Below are positions 2,235 through 64,000 of a stretch of 64,000 nt of DNA, one piece after another. Numbering within the stretch: the stretch's first letter is position 1; every line of letters begins with the position of its first letter. The notes beneath the pieces were generated by a model. The model was not told the DNA's origin. It ran no database searches and saw nothing but the letters and a program-made list of their open reading frames with translations. Source of the DNA: Paramecium tetraurelia (taxonomy: Eukaryota); the NCBI GenBank assembly GCA_000165425.1, contig CT868018.1:13204-77203 (forward strand). Direction: 5' to 3'. The translations under genes and the position numbers were made by a program.

Positions 2235-2242
2235 TAATTTTA

Positions 2243-3595: not shown

Positions 3596-3738
3596 AAGAG
3601 TTGAACAATATTTCTTATTTTAATTCGAAAAAATATCTATTTACGATTAAAAAATATATATCAGGAAAATTAGAGATTATATATAAATGAAAGGGTGTTA
3701 TAATGAATAAAAACATATTTCTAAATAATTGTAATATT

Positions 3739-4692
3739 TCATTGCTTTTACACAATATTATATATTATTAATATTATGCCCATAAATTTTGAAGCTCTTT
3801 CAAATGAATTTTGTTACATTAACTTTTCATGATTTTCTGTTAAAATCTTTAAGGTTTTGATTCTTACATTCATTAACTCTACATTTTTATTTAAGGTTTT
3901 TCCCACCTATTCCTCAAATTTGTTAATTTCTTCAGAAATAAATGTTAGATTGCAAAAGTTGATATCACTAACTGATAATTACAATTTTTCATAATATAAT
4001 TTCAACTGAGATGAAACTAACAGCTAAGCATCTTCTTTATATTGTTCTGATTCATCTTTGAAGATCTTAATTCTCTATTCTAATTATGGTTGAATTGGAA
4101 GTTCAGTTATTTATTTTTCTTATTAAACCTAAACATTTTGTTATTAGACTTATTAAACAGCCAATTTAGGTACCTCTTTTTCTTACTACACTTAAGGTTT
4201 TGATTCTGATGCTTTTGATTAATTTGGCTTTTCTTCTCGGTTGCATTAGACGCACAATTTAACACCTTGTTTACTTTTCATGATTGGTTATAAACATTCA
4301 ATACAAGACTCACTCAACATAGCCCAGCCCTATAAAAGTAATTAACCTATTTTTTTTGATGCTTCATCAGCTGCAGCCTTGTTTACAAAAAATCTTGAAT
4401 TAAAATCTTCTACCTAATCATCAAATTAGAAATCATCTGAATCATAATCTTTATTGTTCTTCACATGAATAATCTCTGGTTTTGATTCTGAACCACTTTG
4501 ATTAGTTTTATTTTGAACATCTTAAGGATCTTAATCTAGAATCACTTAATCTTGAGAAATGATGTCACACTTGGGACAATATAAATTTCTGTTTTCAAGA
4601 AATATAAGCAATGTGCCTTTACATTCACAGACCATAGTAGTCAATTTCCAACCTTCATCAAGCTTTCTATTCATTCTTTGAAACTGGCTCAT
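3739..4692 (-). CDS. SSSCA1/ZNRD2 (Auto_anti-p27/UPF0148)-like protein with two zinc-ribbon repeats
   Basis: MNRKLDEGWKLTTMVCECKGTLL...YCPKC and DEASKKIGQLLLQGWAMLSESCIECLQPIMKSKQGVKLCVQC. 954-nt ORF. Confidence 0.8.
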
Positions 4693-23400: not shown

Positions 23401-26383
23401 ATCTCTGAGAATTCAACAGTACTTTTACAAACACATTTAACATCACTTACTAATCCAATGCATTTCAATTAGATTTCAGAACCATCCTTCACTTTTAAAA
23501 TGATTTTCTCTTCATCTTGTCTTGTAGGATTCTAATTTTTAAATACTGCATCACTCTCAGAATCTTGCGGATCCTTCATTATTTTACTGGGAGTATAGGT
23601 AATTTAAATAATTTAATTAGATTGTCCCTAAATAATTCCATTCAAACAATCAAGGGTGAATTTGGATCCTTCAGCCTAAATGAAATTGAATTATGCTGGT
23701 CCTACACCATTATTACTTAATTTGATGGAATCATTCACACTCATGCCTCCATCTTCATTAAATTACATTTTAACTGTTGTTTTAGAAACCTCTAATTTAA
23801 CTGATTCGACATTGGCCACAACCATGATTTCAAACGAATGTCTCTCATTCAAAATATATCTCAATGTTTATTTCAATTAACCTAATGATTGAGCCTAAAC
23901 GATTATTTCAAATTATCCTTCTTCGCCACTATCTATCACTTAAGGTTCTTGGAATGTCTTTTTCAATTCTTCCTTTTTGTCAATACAAAGTCTGGCTATG
24001 ATGGCATATCTCAAATTGTTATGTATAAAAAACGTTCTTGACATTGGAGTGTTAATGTAAATTGTACCATAATCAATTTTTATGGGTCCTGCTTAAACTC
24101 TCTTCAAATCATCTGCTGTCAATTCCCTGTTTACATCTCTCACTTGTTTATGAGATTATGGTCTCCCTGATAGTATTCTCTTGACTGGTTATTTTGGATC
24201 AGGTTTGAAATCTACCAATTCATCATCTTATCTTTTTAAAGGTTCATACTATTGGAAGGGTTTGACAACATAAAGACCCTCCTTATGATATGGAATATCA
24301 ATATCATTATCCATGTTATCCACTTGCAATCCCAATTCAAATTCGTAATCCTTAGGAGGTTTTGATCCCTCATCTTTCTACTTTTCTTATGCTTTTGTAA
24401 TTGTTTCAACTCTCTATTGAATTATTTATTATCTCTATTTTTCTAATCGATTATTCCTTGAATCCTATAGGAAATTGTTTGTCTACATAGCAGCTTTGGG
24501 TTTTTTCTAAGTATCCTCAAAGTATCCTTCTACAATATTGCCAGGCTGATGATTTTATTCAATAAGTTCATTATTTCTCTTTTTAACATATTCTATTTCT
24601 TTAGTATCGATGAATTTGGGATCTATTTAGAAATCTTCTGCTCTAGCCTCAGGTCCTCTAGTTTAAGGTCTCTTTTTGGCTATTTTCATGGCTTCTCCAT
24701 TGACTTTAACTGGAATAGTCAAGTAATCATTGAGTATCATGTCTATACTTTGAGAGTATTTTCCAACATTTTTTGGAGTAAATTTAACTTGGATAGTAGT
24801 TTAAGATAAACCATTAATTGTGACACTTTCAGGTTTAAAAAAGAAACAAGAAACCTTTTGAAATGAAATGTCCACTGGATAGGTTTACAAATTAGAAATG
24901 GTGAATAGAATGTCTTTATTGTCATTGACATCGCAATCTCCAAATTGCAATGCTTATTTTGATATTCTTACTAAAGGGAGCAATGCCTTGACATTAGTGT
25001 AAGCAATCAAGTCTTCATCAGGTTATTGAACAATAATTGAGTATTTGATTTCTCTAGTCATTTGCTCCTTCTCTACATCAACTCCAAAACAGATTTTCTT
25101 GGCTAATTGCTGTTCTTTGGGAGTTATTTGAATCATGCAAGTTAAGGATAACTCAACACTGGAATATGCTTAGACATAGCCTGTAGATGGTTGGATAACT
25201 AATAGTTTCTCACTCTATTCTATTCCTAATTCATTGGGTGTTTGTAGGTTTACAATATCATCATTTGGATTTATGATGCCTCTTCTTGCAATGATTTTGA
25301 ATTGATGACCTTTGGGAGCGTTGTTCACATATTTCAATTTGATGACTTTAGATTTGCCCATGTAAAGTTCTCCGAAATCCAAGGATGTCACTTGGGAGCC
25401 TTTAGAATCCATTAGGAATCTGGTGTAATCGACTGAACATGCAGCAATATCCAATTTTTGGGTTCCACCTTCACTGACAATATCCATGGTCTATCGAAAG
25501 TTGCCCATCTCATTAGCCTTGTAGATGATGCTGATCTATTGATATTCTCCAGGGGCAATAGTGATGAGATTAGGCAAGGCCCTTAGATTTAAGACATCGC
25601 TTTTTACTTGAACTTTAGCATCTGCGAAACCCACATTTTAAATCATTAATGATTTGGTATTTTCTGTACCTTATTATACAAATCCAAAATCGATGAATTC
25701 ACTAAATTTTAATTTGGAACATGCTCTATATGCAGCTAAATGTACTTCAGCTCTAAATTCATCAGATTCTATAACAATTACATCTTTATAAAAGGGAGGA
25801 GGTTTCTGATGTTGATTCAATGCAGCAATATCTCGTTCCGATTCCTTAAATAAAACAAGAACCTTCAGACCTAATCCAGCAGCTATGCCTTGTTGCATGT
25901 CATAATCAGCTCGGAATTTGGAAGCTTCCTTAAATACGAATAATTACTTTTGGGTTGTTACACTCTGATTCTGACAGGATATTTGGCCAAATTCTGCACA
26001 TTCAAGATTTGCTCATAAAGGATTCCAGGTTTGATGTCTTCGAATATTATTTCTTTGGGGTCAATGTGAAACATTTCCTTCACAATGCTTCTAGTCGATT
26101 TTGCTGCACTCTATATTCGTGTACCACCAACCCTCGTTTAGCCACTTTGAATTCGTGTGTAACCACTCTGTATGCGTTGACTATTATTCGTTGGCTGGGC
26201 AAAGCTCCCTATGCCAGACGGGACTCTTTGGGCAGATGGAAGGCCTGGACTTCTTTGCATTGCCGATTACACTGTTCTTTGATTTTATAAAGTCATCAAC
26301 GAAGGTTTTGCAGATTGGCTTCTTTGATTCGATAAAATTGGTTAGAGCGAACCTCCTGTAGTTGTGGGGACAGGTTGTTACAT
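17465..26383 (-). CDS. CFAP47: Cilia- and flagella-associated protein 47 (ASH/PapD-like Ig domains plus calponin-homology domains)
   Basis: About 2900-aa frame. Diagnostic segments SNVYSTQEMLILRW, FMPKREPLIFKCVLGSIVMKTITLTN..IVYFVKLEGSSDF and EFTVEPTTGLLEPHGKKGTEFKLGFKPKEYG..KLIIETESMYW. Few tiny introns. Confidence 0.85.
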
Positions 26384-39711: not shown

Positions 39712-42700
39712 TCATAATTAACGAAGAATATTAATAGCTTATTAATCAATTAATTCTACCGGAATAATCGTCAAGGATAATCTGATTAAGTTGATTTAGT
39801 TTTGTTGAACTTTACTAAAATAGATTAATGCTAATCCAATTGCTAACAAAGTGAAACATCCAGTTATCATAAAATACACAAGAGCTTCATTAAAATTACT
39901 TTCAATTTATTCATATGCTAATTTTAAATTCTCTTGAGCAAATTAATCAAAAGCTTATTTAGCATTCGTAAAGTGTCTTCCAAACATCTAATTGAAATCA
40001 GCTGAATTCAGCAAAGATAGTGTATTTTGAAAATCTACATCAAGCATTTTATTTTCCAATTCATAGTAATAAGATCCCATTAAGTAATTAATAATTTTTG
40101 TATAGATGCCTATTATTCCTTTATTATAAAGATATGTGCAATTATCTTTGATATCTGGAGAAATAGGACAAAAGATTGAGCAAATATCTTAAAAAAATAG
40201 CTGATTTAAAATGTCAGCATTTTTTGAATTGATATTTGGATTCTTGATTAAATCTTATATTATTTGAATTTGGCTATGCTTAAAGGAATCGAACTAAATA
40301 TAAAAATAGGTTAAATTTTGATAACGATCTTATATGAAGTAATTAGCAGATTATTACAACGTCTTTAGTGATATAGATTCTGTTAATGAATTTTGACTCA
40401 ATAGAATATTCTAACTCTTAATTCTAATTGCATTGCTCACAATAGAATCAACTTGAATGGTGAAATGAAGAAATTCAGCCCCTAGTTGATACGAGGGTTT
40501 GAGTTGCTTTTATTTTTAAGAATTAAATAGGAAGCCTCCAATATTAACAATTAGAATAATTAAGAGTAGAGCAAATAAGAATGCCGATATTGAACACATG
40601 TTAAATGTTGACTATTAAATTCTTGATGAAAGCAGTGTTGTTTTTTTTTATTTAGTATTTGTTGTGTTGATTTACTATTGTTTATTTAGTGGCTAATAGA
40701 TAATGTGCACATAATCAGCCTTCTTCCAGTTGATTGAGTACTTGTCATTTAATATTTCTCTCACACTTTATAATTTTTGGATTGTCACATAAACATCTTT
40801 TTCATACAATCTGCAGTTGAGATGCAGAATCTTCATGTGTAACTTCAACAAATCAAAAAAGAACCAAAACTGTAAGAAAAACATGCAAAATTATAGAATA
40901 GTTTAGATGACGAATAGATTCAAAATCAATTCATCATTTAAGTCTAATTCCACATAGAATTTATCAATTAAGGATCTAATTAATAATCTAAACAAATTTG
41001 TACTATTTTCTAAATTTAAAACTTCAAAAAGAGATTGCTGAAAAAAGTAATCGTTAAAATTACTAAAGTTATTATCCTAATAGTATTTTATTAGAAGTCT
41101 GAAATAAATAGTGAGTTTGGAATAGTAATAAGTGTAAGAAGTATTAAATTCATCCGCTTAATCAATATAGTAAAGTGTAATGTTGGAATTTAACAAATCC
41201 TATTCAATTTGATGAAAGACTGGTTGATGTAGAGACATGTTTTATAAGTAATTAAGATTTTTGAATCTTGATTGAATGGTATTCAATAAGTTTTAACTTA
41301 TTTGAATCCCTTCTACTTTGGACAATTTTTAGAGAATATCATGAGATGTTAATTCACAATAAATGCCATTAAATACATACGGTGCTTAGATCTCAAGAAG
41401 TTATTTATTTCCATTATCTCTTTATTCACTTATAAATATGACATTCAGAATATTAAACAAGACAACACTTAAAACAATACAAATATCCAAGAAAATGATA
41501 AAACTTAATTAGATGGGTCTGGCTTGAGATCGTGATTTCATTTTTAACAATTCATAATGATGATTCCTCGATCTTCTTGCAATAGACCCACCAGAATGTA
41601 TAGCCTGCATTTCATTTTTTTAATCTATTTATTAGTCATTGTTATTATTTGATGACTATTGATCCTGCAGTTTGTCTAGTACTGTCTTATTTTTCGAGTA
41701 TTATTATTGAAAGTTATGATTTTCATATCCTAATTCTTATTGTAATTTGATTATCTTGAATTCATCCTCTAAGTATTTAGAATCATCATTCATACTTTTG
41801 TGTTTGATTAAATTAAAAGTAGCCCTTTGTGAAAAAGGAGCCAAGATTTATCTTGAAGATTCTTATAATTGATCAAAGAAGGATTGATCATATTTACCTC
41901 TCATTAAAGATATTTCTGGGTGTTATTGTAATTTATCATTATCTTCCACCTTCCCTTTTGTAAAGCTTTCATCCTAAATGGAACTTAGCATTAAATGACT
42001 TGATTTATTTAGATCGGACAACTCAACGTTTTACAAACTATTTTATGAGAATGTCTCTCCATTCTCAATGTCTTAAGCAGATATAATGTCATTTATTTCT
42101 AAAGTGAATAACGGAATAGATTTTGAGTAACCAAGTATGAGATACTCTAAGTAACATTTAATCTAGAAATTTGTGGTTTGAAGATTTTGATCAATAAATT
42201 ACTACATCTTTTGCTAATAGGTTTCATCAAACAAATCGCAATTGGGTTTTTGAGAATCAAATAAATTCAGATTTAACATAGATTTTTAATTTTTTTGTTA
42301 ATTTTCTGGAGTATCAAATGTTGTCCACAAACCTGCATAATATAATTAATGTTTATTTTTGCCTTTTGAACTTTACATCAATTTTGAAAACTATTACTTG
42401 ATGGGATTTCCAATTTTTAAAATAATCTTATCGTCTTAGTTATTTTCTTCTTCTGAATTTCGATATGCATTAATTAAATTGAATATTTTTGGGATTAATT
42501 AAAATACATACCCTGAAGACAGATGTTCTTAAGTAATTGTTTTATCTATTGTTTAAAGTAATTTGAACATTAAACTATTGACACCTAAGATTCTACCCTT
42601 GTGATCAAAAAGCATGAATAGACATTTTTCTTTTGTTTTGGAAAATGCAGCCGTTATAACATAATCATCATAACTGATAAAGAAATTATCAATAGTAATA

Positions 42701-44568
42701 TCTGCAGGAATGTAGAAATTATTTTTGCCTTTCAGAAACACTGTTCTACTCTTACCAAATAAAATGCTATGGCCTAACTTCTTAAATCTCTCAAGATATT
42801 GATCATGAACAGATGCTAGAAAGTCTGGCATTAATTGATTTATGTGTTTGATATCTCTAAAATCCATTTCGTTTTCGTATCCCCAAAATTAAGCTATTTA
42901 TTAAGCATTTAATTTTATGATTGATCCTTATGATTTAACAATACTGGTGTACAATAAACAAATTTTATTTTCCATTATGTTACCGTTAAGTAGTTTTCCT
43001 TCAACCAAACTTTCAGATCGCAAAATGTCATTCATTACTTTCTACATCTTAATAGCTTATTCATAATCGTTTATAATTATTGCATAATAAATTATCAACA
43101 CCAAGACTTCTAGGACTGTTCTTGGCTCCTCAACCTATTCGATATTGGTACAATTATATAACTTTTACAATACTAATCGACATTCCAATAATTTTTGACT
43201 CAATAAACATGTAGTCTAAAATAGTTTCTTTACATTTGAGATCAATGATATCAATTATTTCCAGTAATTTATTTTGTGATCAAGAGTACTCAGAATCAAA
43301 GGAATGGATATTTCTCGTATTTTAACTGCCTCATATATATCCTTTGTAGATAGAATGCGATCATCCTAATATTATCCTGCCTTTAAAAGTTGATTTATTC
43401 CATCCTAGACCTTTGTAACTGAATTCCACAATTATTTATGTTGACTTGGAAATGTTATTCTAAAAAACAAGGAATGATCATGTGGGATATTATAATACTA
43501 TTTTAGTCGGCATAGTGCAGTCAAGGGAGCTTTATGAACACATAGAAAGTGGATTAAGGCTAATTCTAAGATCTCATAATCGATTTTCTACTTTTTATTT
43601 ATTGTTATGTTATTTTCTAAATAGCAAATTAATACTTCATTCTTTTTTTGGTCTTCATGCTAAGATACACATTTGTTTTTGTGCTGTCTTAGTTTTAAAT
43701 GCTATTGAATGTCCTATGATTAATAGAACTCTTGGCATTAAACTAGAATGATATATTAGTTTTAAGAATCCATGTCTGCGTATCTGTCATATAATTGAAA
43801 TGAGAGTGCATAGGCAAGAGTGCCTATTAGAATTGTAAAATAAAAGATATTCTCCTCTGATTTATTGAATAACATTAGGGTATGAATTACAACCAGAGTG
43901 TAAAATAAAAAGTTATACTGAAACACTATTTTATTAAACTAGAACTTGTAGGGTTTAAAGATTATAATATCTAAGCAAAGGGCTATTCCCTAAATGTGTA
44001 GTAAAATTATTTGCAAAATGTGAAATTCAAAATCAATGTAGCAAATAGTGTCCAATGCTGCACTAATTACTGTCAATTAAGTGAATTTCCGTATGAATGG
44101 ATTACTATGAATAAATTTAGTTGAACGATTAAAATAGAGATTAAATACTAGAATAAAAAATAAGAGCAGGATTCCAAAAATTGATATTCCAATATTCCCT
44201 GATGAACTTGAAAGCATTGCTACTTAAGGTATATAAAATACATTCCATAAAAGGTTATTGTAATAGAAAACGAATTAAACTTTGAAAAAGCTGAGAATGA
44301 AGATTATAACATTGAATAATATGAGAAGTATTTTAAGTATGTCCGATATCTCTTGATATAAAAAGGACAATATGACATAAGGAACATGCAATTTATAATC
44401 TGTGTATTTCCAAACATCCCATCCATCCTATGGGAATATGAAATGGAGTCTCAAAATAAATTACAATAAAATGGCACTTTAAAATAGTGATTCTCCTAAC
44501 TGAATTTTAGGAGATGAAGTCATTAAATCCAAATAATGCTCGATAAGCCTTTAAGTTAATTCCATCAT
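39712..44568 (-). CDS. TmcB-like PAS-domain multi-pass membrane protein (~1618 aa)
   Basis: N-terminal TM cluster, helical region, PAS motif FWGY..INQLMPDFLASVHDQYLERF..VFLKGKNNFYIP, C-terminal TMs ending LTIIPVELI. Span of 4857 nt is divisible by 3. Confidence 0.8.
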
Positions 44569-48249: not shown

Positions 48250-48933
48250 AAAATATTCAATATATTATTTATATCAATATAATTAATTTATATGTAAAAA
48301 TCAACCAAATTCAATATATAATGAACTTTCATTTTTTTATAAATTTATGTGTTAATTGATCTCAAATCTCTCGTTTTTGTTAGAATTTAAAGTAAATGAA
48401 TATTTCTGAATAATTCTTGAGATCCAATAACTTAATACTCTTCCTATGATAATTTTCATAATATGCAAACTCAGAAAATTATTAAATATATATTTATAAT
48501 TTCTTTAATGGATAAACTTTTAAAAGTGTAATGAGTTTCTTAATTAGAAACAATATTAAGAATTCAAATAAGTAGTATAGTAATACATTAATGTGCGGTT
48601 TTCATGAACTACTGCTACTGTCAAAAATAAAAGTAGTAATAGTTTAATTATAAATCCTGATAAAGATAAAAACACATTATTCTTTTAATTTTATAATAGG
48701 AATTTTACAATTACATTTTTCCGACTAAGTTCTATTAATAGTAAGTTTATAATCTACAATAACCATTGAAATAACTATAGTAATAGATATTTAGAGGTAA
48801 TCTTTAATTTAAGTTTATGATTATTAATCAAATATATAAAATATACACTGCTTGCAAATAAAGAAGAATTTACAAGCAAATAAATTTTAATTAATAAATA
48901 GTCTTTTAATAAAAAATTGGAATTTCTAAAAGG

Positions 48934-51900
48934 ATGGATTAATTTTAAATTGCTGAAAACTCATCTTAAGTTTATAGTTACTACATGACTAGAGAATCAT
49001 TATTAAACAGTAGATAAGAATACTTCAAGTCTATTCTATAGCGGTTATAATTTAATAATGAAGACTAAAATCAATTAAAAATCATAATGGTCCAAACAAA
49101 CCAAAAATTGGAGTTACCAAACAGTTTGGATCTCTCATTTGCTACATCCATCCCAGATAAAATAGATGACTAGATATAATACTTAATTATTAATGAAACA
49201 ATTGAGACTGATTCCTAAAACGTTGAGGAATTGCAATACTAATGCATTCCTGGGTGTAATTTGGTACATTCCTTCCTGTGGAAAGAGAATATGGATAGAG
49301 TTGATTAAATATACGAATATTTACTCAAATACATACAAGAAGAACAGGATGTATTGATTTACTGTAAAAATGTTAATGAAATATAATTAATGGCAAAAGC
49401 ATTATCCTAATTGGGTGAGATTTAGGTTAGATTGTCACCAGAATTTAATGAGGTGTATTAAAAACTCGATTAAAGAAAGAGTATATAAGCAAATCATATT
49501 ATTTACTTGCTTATTGATCCCTAATATTTGGAATCTGAATGTATTACTCTAATTATTCACACTCAATACAAAGAAGTCATAAAACCCTTCATAAAGAGTA
49601 GTGTCCTATATAGTGATCAATTACTGTCTAGATAAGAGCTGATAATTCGAGAAATTCCAAAATCTAATTCAATGGGGGTCTAGATAATATACAACTTTCC
49701 CAAAGAAACATATGTAACTCTTCCTCCAAAAGCAGTCAAACTAGATTCTCATCAATTGGATAACCACATTGAATAGTTTGATAAATCCAAAAACAGTGCA
49801 ATTATTAAAGGAGCTTTGAATACCACAGGCATGCTTTTATAATATTAAAAACAATCCAATTTAACAATCAGAATCAGTCAGCTTTGGTCAAATAAGGGTG
49901 ATGCTTATTCATGGATCGAAATAATTGAATAGCTCGGAATCTTTATTAATTCAATCCTGCTAAATGCAGATTTTGATAAAAATTAAAGCATTTTTGAATT
50001 AACTTAATTAGAAAAATGGTGTGAAGATAATATGGTAAATCTATACAAAGGAATATTAATTTTGCTTTATGTTTAGTAATTCTCTCAAGAATATGTAAAA
50101 TAAATAAATATTATAGAATTGCCCTTCAATTAATATACTTAATGTCGGTGGTTTAACTGCTCCAATTAGAAGGTCGTCCAGTATGTAAATAGTTCAAGAA
50201 GATAAACCATTAGTTGATGAACAATTAAAACTAAATTTCCCTATAGCCGAGTTAAGAGAAGATCAATTCTATCATGTTTAGGAGCATAATTTTAAATTAA
50301 ACTAGTGTTGCATATAATCTTAAAAAGGAAGACTCTAATAGCACATTCATATTTTGGCTTTGAAAGAGAACTCAATTATCTATCTCCATAATAAGAATAG
50401 AAAAACGTCTGTAGTTCAAAAAGAACTAATCATCAGTAATGTTGGCAATGCAATTCTGGAGGAACTATGGAAAAATCAAGGCATTGAGATAGCTGAATTA
50501 GAAAATAAATATAATTGTTCAATTGAACCAAATGTCTACTTAAATTTGATATCCGTTTATTCTGACGATGCAGTTGACATGAGTGAATTATATGCTAGAA
50601 TTGAAAAAATTAAAGAGAATCTTAAAACATAAATTTTGGAAATCAAACATGTTAGTGGAAAAAAATTAATTTTCTAGAGTGGAGCTCTGATTAGTGAATG
50701 GATAAGAGAACATGAATCTAAAGAGTTTAAACTAGTGGGACTACCGCCCAAGGTAACAGAGGATGAGATCAAAGAATTATTTGAAGACTTTACTGTTATA
50801 ACTCATCTTAAATTAAACTATTTAGAAAATGAGACCTAAGCTCAAATTGTTATTGAAGATAAAGATGATATGCCTTACATTATTTAAGGATATGATTAAT
50901 CAGAGTACTAAGATAGAATTATTAATGTTATCACAGAATAGAAAACTTTAAAATAACAAAATGTTAATCAATCAAAATATATCTTGAATGTCATATGGTA
51001 TTCCAAATTATGCACAGGTGTATGTGTTGTAATATTTAATGAAGCTGAACAAGCATTAAAATGTGTAAATCAATTTAATAATCAGCTATTGGATGGAAAA
51101 GAGATTAAAATCAGTTAAGTAGATGATGTTACTTTAAAATTCTAAAATTTAAGTTCTTTCACAACTGAAATCGATATTTTAATGTTATGTGGAGGGAAAA
51201 AGAACATCAAATACCTTGATTTGCAATCAAAGACCCTTTAAGAAAGTAAGGAAGATTATTCACAGAGAATAATACATTTAATCAATAGGAATATTGAAAG
51301 AAATGAAAAAAAGGATGTTGATTTCAATCATACTCACTTGATAAGAAAACCAGGAGGTAAAAGAATAGCTAAAATATCAATTTCAAGTGTTCCTACTATG
51401 CAAAAATTATTAGAGATTTTAAACGGAGAAAAAATATAATTCGGAACAAATCTGGTTAAAGTTCATTGTCAAGGATAATATTATTAATATCATTAAATTC
51501 CTAATCAACTCAAACCCCATATTTAAAAAATTCTGAAGGAACATGAAAAGTTTAATTTTAAAGTTAATTTTGAATAAGGAAATCAATCCAAACAAATAGT
51601 ACAACAAGTTACTATTCGTTCTTAGAATATATTAGTACATTAATAATTAGATCAAATTTTGACTAATTTCTTGTAGGGCTACAAAGTGGAAATAAATAAT
51701 AATGGGGATTTTCTGTTTACAACTTTTGGGTAAAATAAATTAAAAGACTTTGAGATGTTGGATGGAAGCATACATTTTATGGTTGATCAATACAAAAAAG
51801 TGATTCGTGTTTGTTGTTCTTAAGAAAAATTAAATGAGATTACTGAATATGTTAATCAGATTACATAGGCAGTGGTTTCTCATAAATTAGCAATACCTCC

Positions 51901-52772
51901 AGGAGCATTAAAAGAATTAGTAGGATTAAAAGGTTAAGGTCTAGATAGTCTTAAGAAGTAATTCAATTTGACCTAAATTAAATACAAATAACAGAGTAAA
52001 GAATTGTTTTTAGAGGGATCTGGCTAAAATATTTAAGATGCTGTTGCTTGCATAGAGTCTGCTGTTTCTTAAATAAACTTAGAAGGAGAAGCAGATATAA
52101 ATGAAGTCAAATAGGCAGAATGCCCAATCTGTTTTGATAATATTAAACACAGTTATTTATTATAAGGTTGTGGCCATAAATGTTGTTTAGAATGCATTTC
52201 ATTGCATTGCAGTAGCGTTTTACAAGATGTAAAGTTATTTCCTGTGAGATGTCCAGTATGCAATGAAAAGATGATTTTAAATGATATATTGTAAATAATT
52301 GGGAAGGAAAATAAGGACAGCTTGATAAATTTGGCACTTAATAAGTTTGTTTAGGATAATAATTAGAATGTGACATTTTGTTATACTCCTGGATGCAATA
52401 ATTTTGAACAAATCTAATAGTAAGATAAAGCAATATATTGTTAAATGTGTTTAAAATAATATTGTTGTTTATGCAAAGTAAGTATTTAATCTAAGTTAGG
52501 CTTTAAGACATCCTGGATTGACATGTGAGGAAAATAAGATTGGTGATATATTGTTACTATAAAAATTAATGAAAGAGTAAGACATTAGAAAATGCCCAAG
52601 TTGTTAAGCATTAATTCAGAGAATTGATGGATGTTATAGAGTGACTTGTTCTGTATGTAAACAGAGTATTTGTTGGAAAAATAACAATAAAGGAGTTCCT
52701 TGTATGCAGGTGTTTAAGACATCTTCAGAATGCTATGAGCATTTATCCAAAGAACACGGTGGTTATTGGTGA
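48934..52772 (+). CDS. RBR E3 ubiquitin ligase with RRM and KH domains and a degenerate N-terminal DEAH-helicase-like region (DEAH11/12-like)
   Basis: RRMs (LVGLPPKVTEDEIKELF; GVCVVIFNEAEQALKC), KH (IPPGALKELVGLKGQGL), RING1 (CPICF..GCGHKCCLEC..RCPVC), IBR (FCYTPGC..CQMCLKQYCCLC..HPGLTC), RING2 (KCPSCQALIQRIDGCYRVTC). Two 22-nt introns give 1264 aa. Confidence 0.88.
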
Positions 52773-53120: not shown

Positions 53121-55513
53121 ATGTTTTGCTGTGGAAGGAATGGGAATTAGCAGGCTTAGAGGAATAGAATGACAAGATTCCGTTTTTCAGCCGAAGAGGT
53201 TCAAGAATTGCATCGAAGGTAATATGCATACTTAAACAAAGATTTTAAAGAATGACTAATGGATCTAATTTTTTAACAAAAAATCAATTTAGAGACAACA
53301 TGGGACTACTTGGTCTTGAAACAGTTCAAGTGTTGAGTGATTGTTTATTTTAAATTATTGATGAAGATCAGGATGGTAAAATTTAGTTTAATGAATTTCT
53401 TGCTTATTTCGATAAAATCACATATGGTTCTCAGGATGAAAAGGCTGAGATATCATACAAATTAATCGATTAAAATAGAAAAGGATATTTCACATTAAGA
53501 GATTTCTAATAGACAATGCAAGCTTTGATTGATTCTTGGGTCGTTATGACGGGAACTGCGATAACAAATGAGATAAGAGATCACTTAGAAAAAAGAGTTG
53601 CCTACATATTCACCTAAATGGACAAGAATAATGATGAGAAAGTCTCATTTAATGAATACAAAGGAATTTTGGCTAGCGATCCATCCCTACTCGACATATT
53701 CGAATTCTTAAGGAAAGGGATAACTATATCTATTAAAGAAGCAACATTAAAATAAGATTAGATAGTTCTGAGTGAGTTTTATTTAATCAAGGATTAAGCA
53801 GTAGACTTATTTGAATTGATGATAGGATTGAAGCCAAATAGATATTCGACAACTTTATAAGCAAAGCCAAATTTAATTTCCAGTTTAATGTTTTGTTAGA
53901 AGAAAATGTACAATTTAATAATTGATTTTCAAGGAGACAAAATACAACTAGTTAGTTTGGAATCCAGTATTTGATGGGGGAAGAGATCGATGCCTTATCA
54001 TTGAGGATGTCAAGCACTTTAAATGTGAATAAGAACCGTCAACAAGGAGCAATTTAGACCAGTCAAATTATATGTGCCACTAGTTAGATTGGTCCATTCA
54101 TACATAGAGGAGATCAGGAAATTCCTATCAAAATAGATTATAATTTGTAATCAAAAGAAAGTGAGGAAACCTTGGATCCAGAATTGACTGATGGATTAGA
54201 GAAGATTAATTATATGGCAGAAGACTAAATAAGAGATAATTATAAAGAAGCATTAATTAAGATTCACGAATTAAAATAGCAAACTTAACAATCTTTGGAT
54301 AGATTAGAAAAAATGTATTAGAAGAAATTGGAAGAATTCAATGTCAAAAAGAAGAAAGATTTAGAAATAGCTGAAAAAAGAAGAGCTACAATAGCTAACA
54401 TAAATAAAAAGAGAAAAACAGCTTTGTCTGTATAATTTGGACATTAGAATTGGAATCTAGTATTAAATATGATGATTGGAATTTAAATGGCAGTGAAGTC
54501 AGTAAATGCCTTAAGTGATTACGAAGTTACATTAAAAGACTTTAAATTAAAGTACTATTTTGAACTCATGCCAAAGAGAACTGGTAATGAAAAGGCAACT
54601 TTTAAAGTTTGTAAATTCTTTGATTACGCTCCTTAAGTGTTTAATCACATTAGAAAAATGTTCTTTATAGATAATGACAATTATTTGAGTAGCATAGGGC
54701 CTGAAACACTATTATCAAGTATCTTAAAAGGAGATCTAAGTACACTATCTGAATTAACATCTACTGGTAAAAGTGGGAGCTTCTTCTATTATTCTTAAGA
54801 TGGCATATATACATTGAAAACAATTTCAAAAACAGAGTTCACTTTTATGAGACATATCTTATATAATTATTTCAAACATCTTAAAGATTATAGGCAATCC
54901 TTGATAATTAAGTTGTTTGGAATGCATAAAATCATTTTGGATGATAAAAAAATACATTTTATCATTATGAGTAATGTATTCAAAACATCCCACGAAATTA
55001 ATTTGAGGTATGACATTAAGGGGAGTCTTCACTAAAGGAAAACTCCTAGCAATGCTGATTATACTGTGGCAAGGAAGGATTTAAATTTTTTGGAATCTCA
55101 TGAAAAAATTAATATTAGGGTTGACAAATAAAGTGAATTACTCACTTAATTATGCAGAGATGCTGATTTTTTTGCCTAAAATAATATTATAGATTATAGT
55201 TTACTCTTGGGGATTCATGAAATTAATGTTCTTCAAAATTCTTCCAGGACTGACTTACTCCAAGATTAAGAATCAGAAGACATTTCCATAATACAATCAA
55301 AAACTGGCGATAAAATTTATTTCTTTGGAATTATTGATATATTGACAAATTTTAAGTATTAATAGACATTTAATTTATCGTAGCACTAAAAAGAAGATAG
55401 AGTACTGTTGTAAAAGATGTTTTCAAGGCCCTGACATTTCTGCGATACCTCCTCATCAATATGCTGAAAGATTTAAGAGATTTATCACGAATATGTTTAG
55501 AAATAATGTCTGA
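53121..55513 (+). CDS. EF-hand (NCS-like) phosphatidylinositol-4-phosphate 5-kinase
   Basis: EF loops DEDQDGKIQFNE and DKNNDEKVSFNE. PIPK motifs FFDYAPQVF, GKSGSFFYY, IMSNVF, YDIKGS, KDLNF, IIDYSLLLG, GIIDIL, PPHQYAERF. Confidence 0.93.
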
Positions 55514-55648
55514 CTAATTTAATTTCTCATTGATTATCTTAATATTATTAATTGTAACAACAAAAAGTTTAGATATGAATTTATTTCTGTTTATAAATTA
55601 ATTTGAAATAGGTGTGTAATTCTGTATTAATAAAATTAACAACTTTAA

Positions 55649-58600
55649 ATGTTATTAAGAGGAGGAGGTTGTGGAAGTTCAACACCAAAAGATTAATCTA
55701 ATGTCATTACACCTAAACTGTTTGAATAGAAGATACCACCAGATTTGGTTAATTAAATAAAACTGCACTCCACTAAAATTGCTTAAAATGCTGTTCTAGT
55801 TTTGGATTAGCAATCAAATTTAATGAATAGTTTTTCTTTTTTTTAATTGAATGCCAGAGCAATATGGTTATTGGTGAAAAATTAAAAATACACAAAATAA
55901 GTTATAGATTTAGTTTTAGAGAGTTTAGAGTAACTTTTTCCGGCTTTCAAGAGTTTTCTCTAATCTAATCTATTATTTGCACTATACACTTCATAAATTG
56001 TAACCTAGTTGACTTGGGTAATGTTTACATTCTTTTCAACAAATAAAGACAGGTTTTTGGAGTTATCTAAACAATAATAATATTTAAATGAAATGGATCA
56101 AATAAGTGAGAGATTGGAAATAGAGAGTGACTCTTCCCGTTACTAAAATCACATTGAATATGAAATATTCGTAATTTAAGCGATTATTTTTATTACGCCG
56201 ACAAATTCAACTGAAGGTAAAGAAATTCTTGTTAAATTTTTGGGAGGTGCATTCAAAGCCATTGCAACATTTTCATTAAATGATGATTTGATAGATAGTT
56301 TAAAAGATGGTGTAGCATATCTATATCAACAAGGGATTAAATATTGTCGATTGAAAAAGTTGGAATTGATTTATTCTTTACTGACTTTAAAGTACGATTC
56401 TATGGATTAGATGGAAAGAAAAGGAGAAACTAAATAGGTTGTTGAATAGTTAGGAAAGATTTATAGTGAAATTATCAGAGAATCTAATGATTGGGAAATA
56501 TGGTTTACATGGATATAAATCCTATCTTAATTGTATTGTTTCAAACCTATATTGGAGAACATGTAAATTGATTAGCAACTCTATGAACAAATTACATTCA
56601 AAGAATACTCTATCCCCATTATAAACAATAAACATGTCCTTGCAATAAAAAATCAACATATACAGAGTGATTAGACTACTAAAAAGTTATTTGACAATTC
56701 TTTAATATTGCAAGGACAAGCTCTTTTATAAAATATGATTTTGTAAGGCCAAGGTTTATTGCATAATATGGAGTAACAATACTTTGCCAGATTATAAATT
56801 CAAAGAGATTCCTAATAGGAGTAAGAAAATCTTATGCCTATCTCTTCAGCCAAAATCTCATCTATCCTCAATGTAGCCAAGCAAGCATAGGAGGAACTAG
56901 TAGAATTTTATTAACTAATAAATTAAGATGATTTAACTGATGAATCGAAGTTAAAATAGGCTGAAAAAATATTGAAGAATCAATAAAGAGCTTTGTTGAC
57001 TTTATTATCAGAAATAGAAAATGTACAGCGTTTACAAAAACTAGTGCAAGTACTCATTTAGAATTCAGAAAATGGCAATGATATTATAGAAGAATACTAC
57101 TAAATTTAATAATTAAACATCTAATAATATTTAAATGGCCTTATTAAAAGTTAAAACAATAAATTTTAGGAGACATTTTAAAAAGATCATTTTGTAGTAG
57201 TTATTGATAACTTGTTCTTAAAGTCTTCCAATTCATAAGACTTTCAAGTATAATTACAAGGATTTAAATAAAAATAAGATGATTAAAGTGTAGTGAGAAG
57301 TCTTATAGAAGCAATAAAAAAATTGCAATATGATTCGAGCAAATCTAGAATATTGAGTTTGGACTCTTTAATAGGATTGAATAGTGCAATATCATTAATG
57401 TTATAAGAGAAAGTAGCTTTAAACTGGAATCTTGAATTGAATTTGGTTTTATAAGCAAGGATAAAAACAATAAGTAATGAAAAAAAATAAGAAGGGAATT
57501 CTTAAACTTATTAACAAATAGTATAAAATGGTAATTAAATGATCCCATTTGAATCTCTCTATTAGTCAATAAAATTCTTATATACACAATACACCTAGTG
57601 CGAAAGCAATTAGAAATTTAAAACCGCAGAACTTTAGTTAACTAATAACCTTGAAAAACTATTAAAGACTCTATTGATTGAAAATTTTGGATCCATTAAT
57701 CATATTAGTTAGCTTTTGATGAAGAATTTATTCAAGGAAATCAAAAGGCCAGAGGATGTTAATTTCGATATAGAAATTCTGAAAATGATAGAAACTAGAG
57801 TTCAAGATACTATAAATTATGTCAATTAAATATAAAGTTCAATCAAAATGATCTCAGACTTTCTAATGTATGAAAAAGAATCGAATGCTGATAATAGAAC
57901 TGATGTTTAGATATTAATAGATTAAAAACCGTTAGCAGAAATATAGAAGATATTTCAATAAAATCAAATAAATAATTTCTAATTGTCAGTGTGCGTTTAA
58001 AAATTGAATTCCTATTTTGACTCTTTTTTTATAGTGTTCTTAAATTTTGAAAATGCTTTGAAGGAGAATGATAAATAGTTCTATCATTAAGTACTAGAGA
58101 AGAAGCAATTCCTTGAATCGTTGTTATTCTTTTTTTAGTCCTTAGTATCATTGAATATTCTGAATAAGAATGATTAAGAAGTGGCTAGCAGGCTTAAAGT
58201 GGATATAGATAAGAAATTCTAATAGTTACTTGATTTGGAAATAGTAAAGCCCGCAAGCTTTAATATTGATACTAATAATAAATTAACAGATGATTTCTAA
58301 TTTTATTAGGACATTTTTAGTTAATTAGATGATATAAGATAAAATTAAGAAGTTTCTTTAAATAAAGTTAAGTAATTTATAACCACTTGCAAAGAAATCT
58401 TATTGCAAGTTGAGAATCTAAAGACTGTGGAGAAACTAAGTTAACAATTGCCAGAATATGAGACTATGTTGTTGGAAACCAAAAAGTTCATCGATTAACT
58501 TATGGCAATGCTGGATATTAATTCTTTAAATTTAAAAGTAGAATATGGGACAATTCAAAATCTATTAGAAAAAAGTTAGAATTATCAGTATCAAAGGGAT

Positions 58601-61600
58601 CTATAATCATAAATCATATTTATCTTGAGTTAAATTGATACTGAAGAAGTGGAGTCTAATTTTTTGGAGGAGTAAATAGATATTATCAAAGAACAACTTA
58701 TGGATATATTGAGTTAGAATAAATGGAGGATCAGACAAGTCATAATATTCGAATTATAATAAATGAGAACTTTCAGTTTGTCACAATAAGCAATAAACTT
58801 TAGTTCAGGCTTGCTAGTGAAATTCTAGGTTTTTGAGACTGATAAGAGAATCAAAGTGTTGTTTGAGAGTTAAAAGGGGGATGGTTCTATTTTGATCAGT
58901 AAGTTTTGGCCAAGTTAAGAGTAATAGATTTAGAATAAAATAAAAGAGAAACTAAAGGAATTAAATAATGTAGCGTAACAATTAGCCATTGAAGACGAGC
59001 CTATCAAAAAGAACTAAATGAAAAAGGAGTATGCCAGATTGGAAAAGGAAGTTTAAGGTATTTTGGAGAATGTTTAGAACATTGGAAACTCATTAGGAAT
59101 AACAGTGCTGTTTATGCAAGACCTTAAATAGGATTTATTGAGGATAGAGAGCTAAATACAATAATTGTAAGAATTGATGGAGAATATCAACTAAGATATT
59201 AAGTATCTGAAGGGACGGTCAGTGAAGGAACTTTTAGAAATGAGAATGCAGCGAGTCTTGTAATAAAGATTAATTCATAATTCTGATAATGTTTACATTT
59301 AGATCTAAACTAAAGAAAAGAATTTAGAGGAGGGCGTTGAAGATTCAGAATCAATTTTATTTACAGAAGATCTGTTTGGGAATGGGGAGATAAATGAATT
59401 TATATGGAAATAATAAAAAGATTCCTTATTGATACATGGATAAGCCGGATCAGGTAAAAGTACTGCTGCTAGAAAAATTGAGGAATTCCTTTGGGTTACT
59501 TATTAGAAAAATAAAAATTAACAAGATTATGTTCCGCTTATACCTATATTTGTTTCTTTGCCTTAGTTGAAAGATCCAATTTATTGTGCTATTGAAGAGA
59601 CTTTGAGGTCGGATAATTATAGGTTCAGTGAGAGATAGGTTGAAGAATTAAAGGAAGCAGTAGAGACAAAACAATATAGATTAATAATAATTCTAGATAG
59701 TTATGATGAATTAAAATAATAATATATTGGATTAAATCTAAATGCTTCCAATAAAGTAAGTAAATGGAGATGCACTTCAGACAAAAACAAATATCCCAAA
59801 GTGATAACGACATCAAGATCTGAAATATTCACTGTAAATGGTTATTGTACTTGGTTCTTTTCTGAATCAAATTAGATCAAATTTTACAAGGAAGTGAGAC
59901 TATTGAAATTCACTGAGGGTCAGATCCAATAGTACATAGATGAGTATACTCAATTGTGTGTGAAGAGAGTCATCAAAGACTTCTATTTTGGGGCATATTA
60001 AGAATAGAATTATCAAGAATTCGAAAATTTCTACAATGAATTGGTAAAATAAGTCGGTATAGTGAATTTTCGATAAAATAAACAATAGATGTTGAGTAAT
60101 GAAATGATAAGTGCTCTTTTGCAAAAGTGCAAGTAGTTTGTGCCAAATGAGCATCTAAAAACCGTTCAATAGATGTTGACTGAAATATGGTCAAGTTGGC
60201 ATTATCAAAACTTTATTAAATTGATGAAGTTATAATCTCTAATGGAAACTCCCTTTATGGTGGAGATAGTTATGGCCGTATTACCTTATATAGTAAAGTA
60301 AAGATAGGAAATAAATAATATAAAGGACAATTTTATTAGGAAATACATATATTTGAGCAAGAAAGGGGATGCAATTTAGAAATAAGCCTTGGATGAGTGG
60401 TAAAGAATTCTAGGTAATCAATAATTCATCACTGAATTTGTTTAAGAATTTTAGATCAGTGAATAGGAGAAGAAAATTCAATAATATTTTGAGCATCACT
60501 CAAATATAGACATAATTAAGTAGGCTTTAGTTTAGGAACCCTTATCCACATATGATTTTTACGTTGAGTTTTTTGAACATTATTTTAAACGACAAATTAA
60601 TAAGTTGAGAGAAGCTGGAGAATAAATAGAGTATGATGCTATGGGTAATGAATTATGGGAATTTGCTCATAAATTAGCAAATAAAATGACATTTAATAAT
60701 TTGAGTTAGGTTCAATTTCAACCTAGTGGTTTGATATTTAAAAAAAAATAAACTGATTGGAAAGATAAGTTTTTTAATGATGATGAGAAAGAGGGTGTTT
60801 ACAAAAGATTATTCAGGAAGTGCATTCCTATTAAATAAAAGAGTGGCATCTATTCATTTAATCATAAATCGCTTTAGGAATTCTTAGTAGCAAAATGGTT
60901 TATTGAACAAATTACTAGGATGACTCTTGAAGTCTAAGGTAAGTATGCTAATCTCAAGTAGGAAGAAAAAACTGCAATATTAAAATATAATTTCTTTAAA
61001 TAATCCTGGGATTTGGATTATATGCAAGGGCCAATTAAGTTTATCATTGATAAAATCAAATTTAATGAAGAAATCAAATAGAAATTGATGAATCTAATTA
61101 ATTGTTCTAAAATGAGTAAGGAACTCGAAATGGGAAGTTCAAATAGTTTATATATTCTCAACTAGATGGGACAATCATTTATAGGATAAGATTTTTCAGA
61201 AATTAGAATTAAGGAAATTAGTTTAAATAATGCTAATTTCTTTAATTGCAATTTTACTTCTTCAGTATTTACCTAAGTTAAGTTATCAAGAGTGAATTTA
61301 AATCAATCCAAAATTAACGACGTTTTTTGGTAAGAGATTTAAGTAGATGAATTACCAAGAATAGAATCGAAACTAAACTCAATAGATTAAATCACTTACA
61401 TAAAGAGTAGAGAACTCTTCATTACAATAGATGACTTATCAGTTAAGCAATATAATTTATATAAATTATAGGAAGAAAATCAATTAAAATTTGAATTTAA
61501 ACCAAAATTAGCAGTATTATCAAACAATGAATAGATTTTAGCACTAATGAATAATAATGAAATATTGCTATTTGACATTATCAGAAATAATCCAATATAA

Positions 61601-64000
61601 AAATTTATATATGGGGAGTGTTTCTCATGTTATAAATCATGCATTACATTTAGCCCAGATGATAAATCTATAATTTTGGGAGGATCAGATGGGGCTGATC
61701 AACTTTAGATAACAATAGAATATTAAGAAATTGAAAACCAATTGAAATAATAGGTTGATAATAAATCAAAGGTAAATGTTAGTGCAACTAATTCAAAAGT
61801 AAATCCTAAGCGTTAGAATGCAAAAGGAGATGAGAAGGAAGTTCAATAAAGTTAAATAGGTTAATAAAGTTAAATAGGTTCAAATATATAGAGAAGAGAA
61901 TCATAAAAGGTGACCATTAAATTGTTACCTGATGTTATTGTTTCTCCTGATTAATTTACTTCTTTGATTGATGAACATGTAGTTAGTGTAAAATGTGCAA
62001 AAATTGTAGTTTTTTAGCATTATACTAACACCTTCTCTATCTGCAATCCGACTGATAAAAAAGTTGAGACTCACGAATCAAGATTGTAGAGAATGACTTG
62101 CTTAGATATCAATAAGGATAACACATTGATTGCCATAGGAGGTTATTAAGGTGAAATTCATATATTTTAAGTGAATTCAATAGATTCATTTTTTGGTTTA
62201 GAAGGTCATAAAGATTATGTATCACAATTATAGTTTTCAAGAGATGGAAAAAAATTGGTTACTTGTTCTTGGGATAGAACTATAAGATTGTGGAATACAC
62301 AATAGTAATCATAGATCAGCCAAACTTCATTTTATTTGAAGCCAAAAGTTCTCTCTTTAAGTTAAATAAGTGATACATCATTAGCATTGACAGGATTTTC
62401 TGATGGTTTAATTTAAATGTGGGACTTGGAAAGTTCTGATTCTAAATTGGATTAAGAAAAGGGACATAGTTTGAAAATAACCTGTGCCATATTTTCACCA
62501 GATGGCAAATTCATCATCTCTGGATCGTTTGACAAAACAATCAAAGTTTGGAATATTTAGACTGGCCAATAAGATCAAAATCTAGTTAAACATACATAGG
62601 CCATTACTGCTTTATCTATATCGAACGATTCACAATTATTATGTTCAGGTAGCTTAGATGGATACATATACCTTTGGGATTTCTAAAAATTCAAGTTCTT
62701 ATAGGAGATTAAACATTATGGATCTGAAATTCTAGACATAAAAATTATTCTGTTTAATAATGAATATAGAATCTTGAGTCAAACTAATGAAGAGACTGCT
62801 CAATTATGGTTTAATAATGATTACCAAGAGTATTATTTACTTTATGATTACGATGAATAATAGAAGGAGAAAAGAAAGATGCTTGGATATGAATGTAAGG
62901 AAATACTGAATCTGTCTAAGGGTCTATAAGTGGATGTGGGAAGGAGTTACAATATACTATATTATTTTTTGAGAGATTAGAAGATAAGTGCATTAGAATC
63001 TAGTTTTGATAACTAGAACAAGTTGATTGGAACTGACAAGGGAATCCTCTTGATTATTCAATGGAATGGGTAATCTTAGTAGAGGATTGTTTCTTAGAAT
63101 AAACCATTAGAAATCATCAAAACTATTAATCACAAATATTTTCTCACCATCACTGAGTAGAAAATACAGATATGGAAATTTTCGGATTACCTAATCAGAG
63201 ATACAGTAATAAGTGGGGATTGGAAAATCGTTGATCTTTTTGTTTGCAATGATAATATCTATTGTGGAGGTAACATCATTGAGATTTGGAATGTCCATCA
63301 GAAGACTAAATTGATAAAGAAAATTACTCCGACTGATTCCTTATCAGCTATTGGATACGATCAGAATAAAAATATTGTATATGCTGGACTAAATAATGGG
63401 TCAGTAATAATTTTCGATGTTTCCTACAATAATCAATCGGTATTCAGTGCTCATGATGGATAAGTCAAAAAGATTCAGTGGTTGAATTCTAAGAATATGT
63501 TATTTACTGGAGGGGATGATTGGAAACTTAAATTATGGGATTCATAGAACAATCTATTGAAAGAAGTGTCTGTTGACAATCCTATCTAATCGTTTTTTGT
63601 GTCCCTAGATGAGACTTATTATATTTTATAGTAACTTAATTCAGTGTCTTTATGGGACTTAGATAATTTAGAACGTGTAGAATACATGGTTAATATTTAG
63701 AAAACTTCCAAGGTTTTAGCAGTTTTTCCAAATTAGTAGGTGTTTTGGACAGAAGATACTCAGGTATCAGTGTTGCCCATCATGAATAAAAAGATTAAAT
63801 TTTCATTACTATAGTCCAACAGATCCCATTTTTCTTCGACCATTGCAACAACTGATAAAATGATATTGACAGCTGACCACAAAGGAAGTATATTCTTTTG
63901 GAATTTTGATGGAGAGAAGATTAAGTAACCCATAGTTTTGGACAAAAATGAATTGAGATCTATGGCTATATCTCAGGATTATACTAAAGTCATTCTAGGA
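55649..64000 (+). CDS. NACHT (STAND) NTPase plus pentapeptide repeats plus WD40 repeats, NLR-like; 3'-truncated by window edge
   Basis: Frame is conserved from ATG 55649 to the window end (>2780 codons). Walker A HGQAGSGKST at 59438, Walker B LIIILDSYDE, ITTSR, FNHKSLQEFLVA, pentapeptides (LNNANFFNCNFTSSVF), WD40s (GHKDYVSQLQFSRDGKKLVTCSWDRTIRLWN). Confidence 0.92.

Follow-up and report, generated by a model that had tools for sequence, protein, structure and literature searches.

An LRGG motif resembling the ubiquitin tail, joined to a putative acylation signal at the N-terminus of a Paramecium NACHT-WD40 protein family

The DNA considered here is a stretch of 64,000 nucleotides from Paramecium tetraurelia (contig CT868018.1 of assembly GCA_000165425.1, positions 13,204 to 77,203 of the forward strand), referred to throughout as the window. 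From position 55,649 on its forward strand runs a gene whose product, judged from its translation, is a STAND protein of ~2,900 residues with NACHT, pentapeptide-repeat and WD40 regions. Its first residues, M-L-L-R-G-G-G-C-G-S-S-T-P-K, set an L-R-G-G like the tail of ubiquitin directly in front of a sequence with the layout of an acylation site. Among the aligned relatives of this protein, no part of the N-terminal region is better conserved than LRGGGC, which lies in a tail that is predicted to be disordered, behind leaders that vary freely in length and sequence. We tentatively favour the explanation that an LxGG-type protease acting in trans strips the leader, which would expose a glycine for N-myristoylation together with palmitoylation of the adjacent cysteine.

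The closest database proteins are 'NACHT domain-containing' proteins of 2892–2946 aa from P. primaurelia, P. sonneborni, P. octaurelia, P. pentaurelia and P. tetraurelia, the P. primaurelia homolog sharing 86% identity across the first 330 residues. By these matches the window is macronuclear DNA from a member of the P. aurelia complex. All eight homologs returned by a search with the N-terminal 330 residues open with M-x(1,3)-LRGGG; six of them begin MYLRGGGCGSS, MILRGGGCGSS, MQLRGGGCVSP, MKLRGGGCGSS (twice) and MNLRGGGCGSS, and the other two begin MFLQLRGGGCGNS and MQLRGGGVGCMK. The residue after LRGGG is cysteine in seven of the eight, the eighth reading GGGVGC, while position 2 varies (L/Y/I/Q/K/N) and the residues beyond GSS differ too. 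A phmmer search with residues 1–440 against 1.84 billion representatives gave 33 matches, of which 18 carry the motif. L[R/L]GGG is present in every one of the 14 that align from query residue 3 or earlier, at 23–33% identity (80% for P0004). Twelve of the 15 matches that lack it are fragments of 61–121 aa beginning within the domain, P0019 is N-truncated and P0038 lies on a 671-bp contig; the last, P0039, is taken up below. A profile search with a further alignment, A3, restricted to lengths of 1433–4090, returned ten matches, two of them new: P0045, which reads LRGGGCGTFR, and P0046, an N-truncated model that starts inside the domain. The sequence-only reading that first drew attention to this N-terminus had staked itself on conservation of the motif among paralogs, and on this point it held, both in the eight close homologs and in the 14 distant ones that reach the N-terminus.

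Column by column, the same pattern is seen in an alignment (A2) of the window peptide with 27 proteins spanning the N-terminus (n = 28; eight clusters at 40% identity, four at 30%). G5, G6 and G7 are each present in 28/28 sequences, L3 in 27/28, and R4 and C8 in 26/28, and in the two sequences without C8 a cysteine stands one to three residues from GGG. The motif columns, together with W282, F65, W288 and L96, are the least variable of an alignment whose mean column identity is 22%. Two variants of the motif occur, FAGGGC and LLGGGC. The full LRGG|G of a ubiquitin-like precursor with a removable extension is found in 26/28 sequences, a match at the level of sequence only.

The residues before the leucine behave differently from the motif itself. 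Leaders in A2 measure 2, 4, 5, 7, 11, 20, 21, 46, 58, 61, 75, 90, 117 and 138 aa, with 2–21 aa in most, credible, models. They are alike only within a clade and unrelated between clades, no position upstream of the leucine being conserved, so that G-C-x-x-S is preceded by an apparently dispensable leader of 2–138 aa, as at known embedded acylation sites. The segment after the motif is gappy in A2. In an AlphaFold2 (AF2) model computed with A2, residues 1–26 of the window protein have a predicted local distance difference test score (pLDDT) below 50. The model of a distant paralog, P0013, gives the same picture, with a helical domain behind a low-confidence tail (residues 1–34, pLDDT <50, including an 11-residue leader and LRGGGCGTS; predicted template modelling score, pTM, 0.78). 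Being conserved within a tail modelled as disordered, LRGGGC is, on these predictions, a conservation island that behaves as a short linear motif and not as a structural element.

Three other origins for such an N-terminus were considered and set aside. Sequential dipeptidyl trimming does not suit a family in which leader and LRGG together add up to an even number of residues for certain members and to an odd number for the rest. A remnant ubiquitin fusion was rejected as the long leaders are unlike ubiquitin by eye; in the window protein the beta-grasp fold that precedes the tail of ubiquitin-like precursors is absent, only M-L standing before LRGG in a tail of pLDDT <50. The double-glycine leaders cut by C39 peptidases follow a consensus of a conserved helical leader of ~15 or more residues ending in GG; here the leaders go down to two residues and have no conserved upstream positions.

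At P4–P1, the tails of ubiquitin, NEDD8 and ISG15 are marked by L-x-G-G, as are the sites of LxGG-specific papain-like proteases. N-myristoyltransferase (NMT) requires glycine absolutely and prefers serine or threonine at +5, and a cysteine next to that glycine is the usual palmitoylation partner. Each conserved position of the motif seems to fit a determinant either of cleavage or of acylation. On the cleavage side, the P4 leucine and the P2/P1 Gly-Gly are strict, and P3 is the position altered in both variants (R to A and R to L). On the acylation side, the G-x-x-x-S/T of an NMT substrate is found with a cysteine beside the glycine in 26/28 sequences. The spacing singles out the third glycine, serine or threonine standing at +5 in 21/28 sequences counted from G7, 18/28 from G6 and 0/28 from G5; a PROSITE-like NMT pattern is likewise matched from G7 in 21/28. 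The primary product does not have a glycine at position 2: the window protein starts M-L-L-R and Met-Gly starts number 0/28 in A2, and it follows that a glycine could become N-terminal only through endoproteolysis.

Direct MGC starts elsewhere in the window had been mentioned in the sequence-only reading, and two first-ATG open reading frames (ORFs) indeed have them, MGCTCSSK at +38622 and MGCANTK at −45244. Both are classic dual-acylation starts, and a direct start of this kind would make lipidation constitutive. That the NACHT family retains both a leader and LRGG although such direct starts occur suggests that exposure of its glycine may be conditional, or gated. As to the two ORFs themselves, that at +38622 (MGCTCSSKREQ) is 80 aa long and perhaps a first exon, and that at −45244, MGCANTKSRSEK, is 155 aa long and lies directly upstream of a same-strand, family-less ORF of 1618 aa (39712–44568).

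At the locus, the codons ATG TTA TTA AGA GGA GGA GGT TGT GGA AGT TCA ACA CCA AAA (55649–55690, forward strand) translate to the 14 residues given above, in agreement with the N-terminus MLLRGGGCGSS that had been read there. Position 55649 is the first ATG past an in-frame TGA at 55604–55606. Under the ciliate code, in which TGA is the sole stop, the frame is open from 55649 to the window end (8.35 kb, 2784 codons), no TGA occurring in frame anywhere in 55649–64000, and TAA or TAG is read as glutamine at 210 of the 2784 codons. The window is AT-rich (GC 0.23–0.34), and long genes appear in it only when TAA and TAG are taken as glutamine. Among the six-frame ORFs of at least 100 aa in the window, LRGG occurs once, at the start of the NACHT ORF; this lone occurrence could be due to chance, and the weight rests on conservation.

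Transcription was checked in three oligo-dT RNA runs labelled with the same species (X21, X22 and X23), using 20, 23 and 20 aligned reads per run, mostly from the upstream gene. Coverage of that gene stops by ~55528, no reads fall in 55529–55621, and sparse reads restart in the bin 55622–55652 (X23) and from 55653 (X21), X22 having none before ~56087. Sparse reads without joints span 55653–55776, and no splice joints were seen at the 5' end of the NACHT ORF among the few reads of the three runs. The absence of reads in 55529–55621 and their sparse presence from 55622 on weakly support a short 5' untranslated region and ATG 55649 as the true start. A cryptic tiny intron that would create an MGC start was also considered and rejected: the sole GT..AG choice is 17 nucleotides long and shifts the frame, and no RNA joints were found for it.

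The features of the gene, all on the forward strand, are as follows.

55604–55606 (+): nearest upstream in-frame TGA stop, the 5' bound of the ORF (ciliate code, by eye)
55649–55654 (+): M-L, start codon plus one residue, a two-residue leader (P6–P5 of the proposed site), from the translation
55655–55666 (+): L-R-G-G, ubiquitin-tail-like P4–P1 of the proposed site (alignment A2; pLDDT <50)
55667–55681 (+): G-C-G-S-S, proposed new N-terminus (conservation in A2; G-C-x-x-S layout)
55682–55744 (+): variable, gappy linker, residues 12–32, predicted disordered (indels after the motif; low pLDDT)
55745–56746 (+): predicted all-alpha N-terminal domain, residues 33–366, a generic ARM/HEAT-like solenoid (AF2)
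56747–59425 (+): region rich in Q/E/K/L and poor in Gly/Pro, residues 367–1259 (composition)
59426–59722 (+): NACHT NTPase core, residues ~1260–1358, Walker A GQAGSGKST (PF05729)
61193–61375 (+): pentapeptide repeats, residues ~1849–1909 (PF13599, E = 5.5e-7; PF00805, E = 1.2e-4)
62051–64000 (+): WD40 beta-propeller region from residue ~2135, the ORF passing the window end (PF00400, E = 1.1e-40)

The NACHT core of a STAND NTPase is recognised by PF05729 (E = 1.4e-9) with a score of 38.4 bits, the cutoff being 26.7, and the C-terminal repeats that serve NLR-like STAND proteins as sensor are present as WD40 and pentapeptide repeats. For the whole translated protein the best 25 of 40 Pfam families are all WD40 or beta-propeller families; scans of residues 1–1100 and 1100–2000 gave only NACHT, AAA and pentapeptide families. 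The final ~140 residues lie beyond the window. Residues 367–1259 probably form a coiled coil, to judge from their composition. The N-terminal domain is modelled with pLDDT ~80–96 and pTM 0.72, its first helix beginning at residue 33. Foldseek found no match for it in the PDB at E ≤ 1e-3, and the VIA wide search gave a best Z of 9.7, with importin-beta, WapL and other HEAT/ARM repeats, a score rated non-specific for helical repeats. In the Foldseek and VIA lists neither a protease nor a death-fold or pore-forming fold was conspicuous, an absence that excludes nothing. As regards N-terminal effectors of known class (CARD, PYD, TIR, CC/HeLo or enzymatic), Pfam recognises no family in residues 1–1100 and the fold is a non-specific solenoid.

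One relative of the window protein is bacterial. P0029 is a 1450-aa 'NACHT domain-containing protein' of Candidatus Neptunichlamydia sp. REUL1, encoded on a 1.97-Mb contig, and is colinear with the window protein (residues 116–335 with 1–225, and 908–1435 with 1016–1556; 25% identity, E = 3e-45). It comprises the N-terminal domain, the region before NACHT and NACHT itself, and it ends just past NACHT, having no WD40 part. At residue 118, behind a 117-residue leader, it reads LLGGGCGVSQ. Its composition is by eye not ciliate-like, and a scan of contigs with P0029 gave 23 pattern matches, none of them confirmed. From sequence, these features suggest that a gene has passed between a chlamydial symbiont and a host of ciliate type. 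Bacteria are not known to have NMT, and for that reason retention of G-C-x-x-S in P0029 would be sensible only for a protein whose site of action is within a eukaryotic host.

The mechanism we tentatively favour runs as follows. A trans-acting endopeptidase with LxGG specificity at the peptide level, such as a cysteine protease of the Ulp/adenain or papain-like kind, would cut after Gly6; NMT would then attach myristate post-translationally to the exposed Gly7, and Cys8 beside it would be S-palmitoylated. The resulting dual lipid anchor would draw the ARM-like N-terminal domain to a membrane, and the rest of the STAND protein along with it. Cleavage and lipidation of family members are what we infer from the conserved motif, the variable leaders, the tail predicted to be disordered and the serine or threonine at +5 in 21/28 sequences, and to this extent the protease-gated lipidation put forward earlier stands in conditional form. 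The accompanying suggestion of a deubiquitinase (DUB)-type cut keeps the match of LRGG to the ubiquitin tail, but is itself doubtful in that DUBs mostly need the ubiquitin fold and the leaders can be as short as two residues. Among viral papain-like and adenain/Ulp-like enzymes there are known cases of LxGG being recognised at the peptide level. Whether processing would be constitutive maturation or a tripwire, two forms in which the idea had been cast, is a matter on which nothing here separates them.

The protease is where the model is weakest. In cases of the AvrPphB and BID type the cleaving protease is defined; in the NACHT protein no Pfam protease family was found in residues 1–2000, and the fold is helical. 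The only cysteines and histidines invariant before residue 1300 in the eight close homologs are H42, C653 and H1265, with no conserved Cys-His pair in residues 367–1259. As far as can be seen, self-cleavage is unlikely, and since no protease domain was detected in cis, a protease in trans would be needed.

Several further points weigh against the favoured mechanism. NMT acts mainly co-translationally, cellular DUBs and ubiquitin-like proteases (ULPs) normally rely on a folded ubiquitin body, for which a leader of two residues is no substitute, and the analysis turned up no candidate protease. Seven of the 28 sequences have no serine or threonine at +5 (a GCGSF clade of four, and GCVSP, GVGCM and GCVLV), and the PROSITE-like pattern is permissive, passing also in 24/28 sequences from G5 (a cut after R4) and in 23/28 from G6 (a cut after G5). 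The count of 28/28 for the glycines is not an unbiased one, members of A2 having been picked after the motif or a variant had been seen, and homolog N-termini come from automated gene models, so that leaders of 46–138 aa may be mispredicted. P0039 of P. primaurelia (318 aa), in which 144 residues without the motif stand upstream of the domain, is possibly the sole true exception; it is annotated as a 'Transmembrane protein' and could either reflect a mis-joined gene model or be a genuinely motif-less member. Finally, when proteins of 71–2000 aa were searched for words shared with the first 40 residues, there was one candidate and none scored at E ≤ 10, which gives, weakly, no sign of a general cellular pathway that uses the motif.

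An explanation that dispenses with cleavage altogether seems to us rather unlikely, though it deserves attention. Cys8 alone might be S-palmitoylated, as are the N-termini of GAP-43 and PSD-95, which carry no myristate, or LRGGGC might be a docking motif for a partner or for the protein's own ARM-like or WD40 domain, with an autoinhibitory effect, the leader being a tolerated extension. Such a role would call for no extra protease, in keeping with the lack of a detectable protease domain in cis. It also accords with a tail predicted to be disordered, as is usual for short linear motifs, and with a cysteine present at position 8 in 26/28 sequences and within one to three residues of GGG in the other two. 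It leaves unexplained, however, why L, G, G and G are stricter than the cysteine, why serine or threonine stands exactly at +5 from the third glycine in 21/28 sequences, and why length and sequence before the leucine are free. Cleavage at another bond is distinctly improbable. A cut after Arg4 by an arginine-specific enzyme, for example a metacaspase, would give GGGC, and a cut between Gly7 and Cys8, of Hedgehog/intein or Ntn type, would leave a cysteine at the N-terminus. The NMT pattern does pass from Gly5 and Gly6 at the counts given above, and Gly-Cys junctions are classic sites of self-cleavage. Nevertheless, the frequency of serine or threonine at +5 rises from none at Gly5 through 18/28 at Gly6 to 21/28 at Gly7, the downstream domain is all-helical and has neither a Hint nor an Ntn fold, and a cut after arginine leaves the invariance of the three glycines unexplained. 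Least credible of all, and hardly to be entertained, is an artefact in which the true start lies downstream, for instance at Met59, or the stretch owes its conservation to the nucleic acid, for example to translation-start context. The homolog models are automated, RNA at the 5' end is very thin and Met59 is well conserved. Against this, it is the amino acids of the motif that persist at 23–33% identity and at varying distance from the annotated methionine. Between the motif and Met59 the columns P22, P31, L33, I37, H40, I44 and D53 are invariant in nine sequences, the motif survives in the chlamydial protein, within a bacterial coding context, and the joint-free reads over 55653–55776, with none in 55529–55621, fit the upstream start.

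The tripwire deserves separate consideration, improbable as we hold it to be. LRGG|G would here be a bait copying the ubiquitin tail, cut by a DUB-like or LxGG protease of a virus or an intracellular bacterium, and the new glycine end would switch the STAND protein on, through myristoylation-driven recruitment or through a Gly/N-degron. A bait in the disordered N-terminal tail of an NLR-like protein has a reported parallel in NLRP1 (PMC7857732). A bait copying the ubiquitin tail is expected to be constant, retention of a leader where a plain MGC start would do points to conditional exposure, and the chlamydial homolog speaks for gene traffic between this family and intracellular bacteria. Yet no pathogen protease is known for Paramecium here, neither a FIIND-type release module nor a death-fold effector was found in the Pfam scans, known tripwires evolve fast while LRGGGC is frozen, and no feature seen here separates a tripwire from endogenous processing. 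A fuller version, to which we attach equally little probability, is a protease-triggered lipid switch in a protist NLR. In it the copied ubiquitin tail would be a bait hard for a pathogen to escape: any DUB-like or LxGG-specific protease introduced by a virus or an intracellular bacterium would trim the leader, Gly-Cys would be lipidated, the receptor would move to the membrane and become active, and the chlamydial LLGGGC copy would be a captured countermeasure.

Compared with known systems, the motif that the favoured mechanism takes as its cleavage and acylation site has familiar parts. In precursors of ubiquitin, NEDD8 and ISG15, L-R-G-G precedes a removable extension, and a glycine follows it in Paramecium as it does in the extensions of NEDD8 and ISG15. 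These precursors have an upstream beta-grasp fold and their product lies upstream, whereas in Paramecium there is no beta-grasp and the product of interest lies downstream. That a linear LxGG|G outside ubiquitin can be cut by a papain-like protease is indicated by coronavirus PLpro, whose LxGG|X sites include the LGGG of IRF3 and resemble the Paramecium site (PMC7850364). The G-C-x-x-S layout (P1' Gly, P2' Cys, P5' Ser; G-X-X-X-S) recurs in AvrPphB, ORF4 and NopT, which are myristoylated and palmitoylated after removal of a leader, as established by radiolabelling, eukaryotic enzymes acylating them and so targeting these proteins to the plasma membrane (PMC2708883). Members of the AvrPphB family are cut by their own papain-like protease, at a site with something other than LRGG on its P side. 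In the Paramecium protein the search for a protease domain found none, the P side is of ubiquitin-tail type and the carrier is a eukaryotic NACHT-WD40 protein. Endoproteolysis also exposes an internal glycine for NMT in the caspase-dependent myristoylation reported for BID, huntingtin and other proteins (PMC4200515, PMC9880554; for BID also PMC2708883). Those sites, unlike the Paramecium motif, are cut after aspartate, belong to animal apoptosis and are not N-terminal motifs invariant throughout a family.

On the side of the receptors, NLRP1 and CARD8 are STAND/NLR-type proteins reported to carry a protease site in a disordered N-terminal region (PMC7857732), and the Paramecium tail is likewise predicted to be disordered. 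They differ from the Paramecium protein in that no FIIND (ZU5-UPA) or CARD was found in the latter, its site is frozen, and the proposed output is lipidation and not release of a C-terminal fragment. Acylated plant NLRs such as RPS5 share the idea of an N-terminal myristate or palmitate anchor on an NLR-type receptor, but they, like MGC proteins, start Met-Gly, which is the case for 0/28 members of the Paramecium family in A2. Taken singly, all the ingredients are known: proteolytic exposure of embedded acylation sites, NLRs that are acylated, proteases specific for LxGG, and tripwires in NLRs. What was not met with in print is their combination, in which a ubiquitin-tail-type site fused directly to G-C-x-x-S stands behind throw-away leaders and is conserved more strongly than any other element of a eukaryotic NACHT-WD40 family. 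In literature searched by titles and the beginnings of abstracts, with subscription journals and supplements outside the scope, nothing relevant joined LRGG with myristoylation or dealt with LRGGG, and of the listed matches on Paramecium and NACHT none treats the LRGGGC motif by its title.

The neighbours of the NACHT gene in the window are ordinary, comprising EF-hand, PIP5K, RRM-KH-IBR, kinesin-RCC1 and CFAP47/HYDIN-like ORFs. Immediately upstream on the forward strand, an EF-hand ORF (53252–53974) abuts a PIP5K ORF (53974–55434), and the two may be one calcium-sensor-PIP5K gene split by a small intron or a frame change. About 3 kb upstream of the NACHT gene (48817–52528, forward strand), a family-less ORF overlaps the start of a second ORF, which carries RRM, DEAH11-like KH and IBR (half-RING) domains; together they may be one RBR-type ubiquitin-ligase gene with introns. 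In-frame tiny introns are typical of Paramecium. On the reverse strand, a single ORF at 9003–11246 combines a kinesin motor (E = 9e-83) with RCC1 repeats (E = 3e-68), an unusual-looking fusion, and a 2666-aa ORF at 17898–25898 carries CFAP47, HYDIN/CFAP65-like Ig and ASH domains, which are ciliary, at a GC content of 0.32–0.34, above the rest of the window.

If the proposed mechanism is true, a lipid anchor licensed by proteolysis would exist outside animal apoptosis and bacterial effectors, and the proteins bearing it would be NLR-like ones from a protist. There would, moreover, have to be an endopeptidase in the cytosol able to recognise the ubiquitin tail when it is presented as a bare peptide. 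The motif itself offers a handle on the role and site of action of the large, unstudied NACHT-WD40 families of ciliates.

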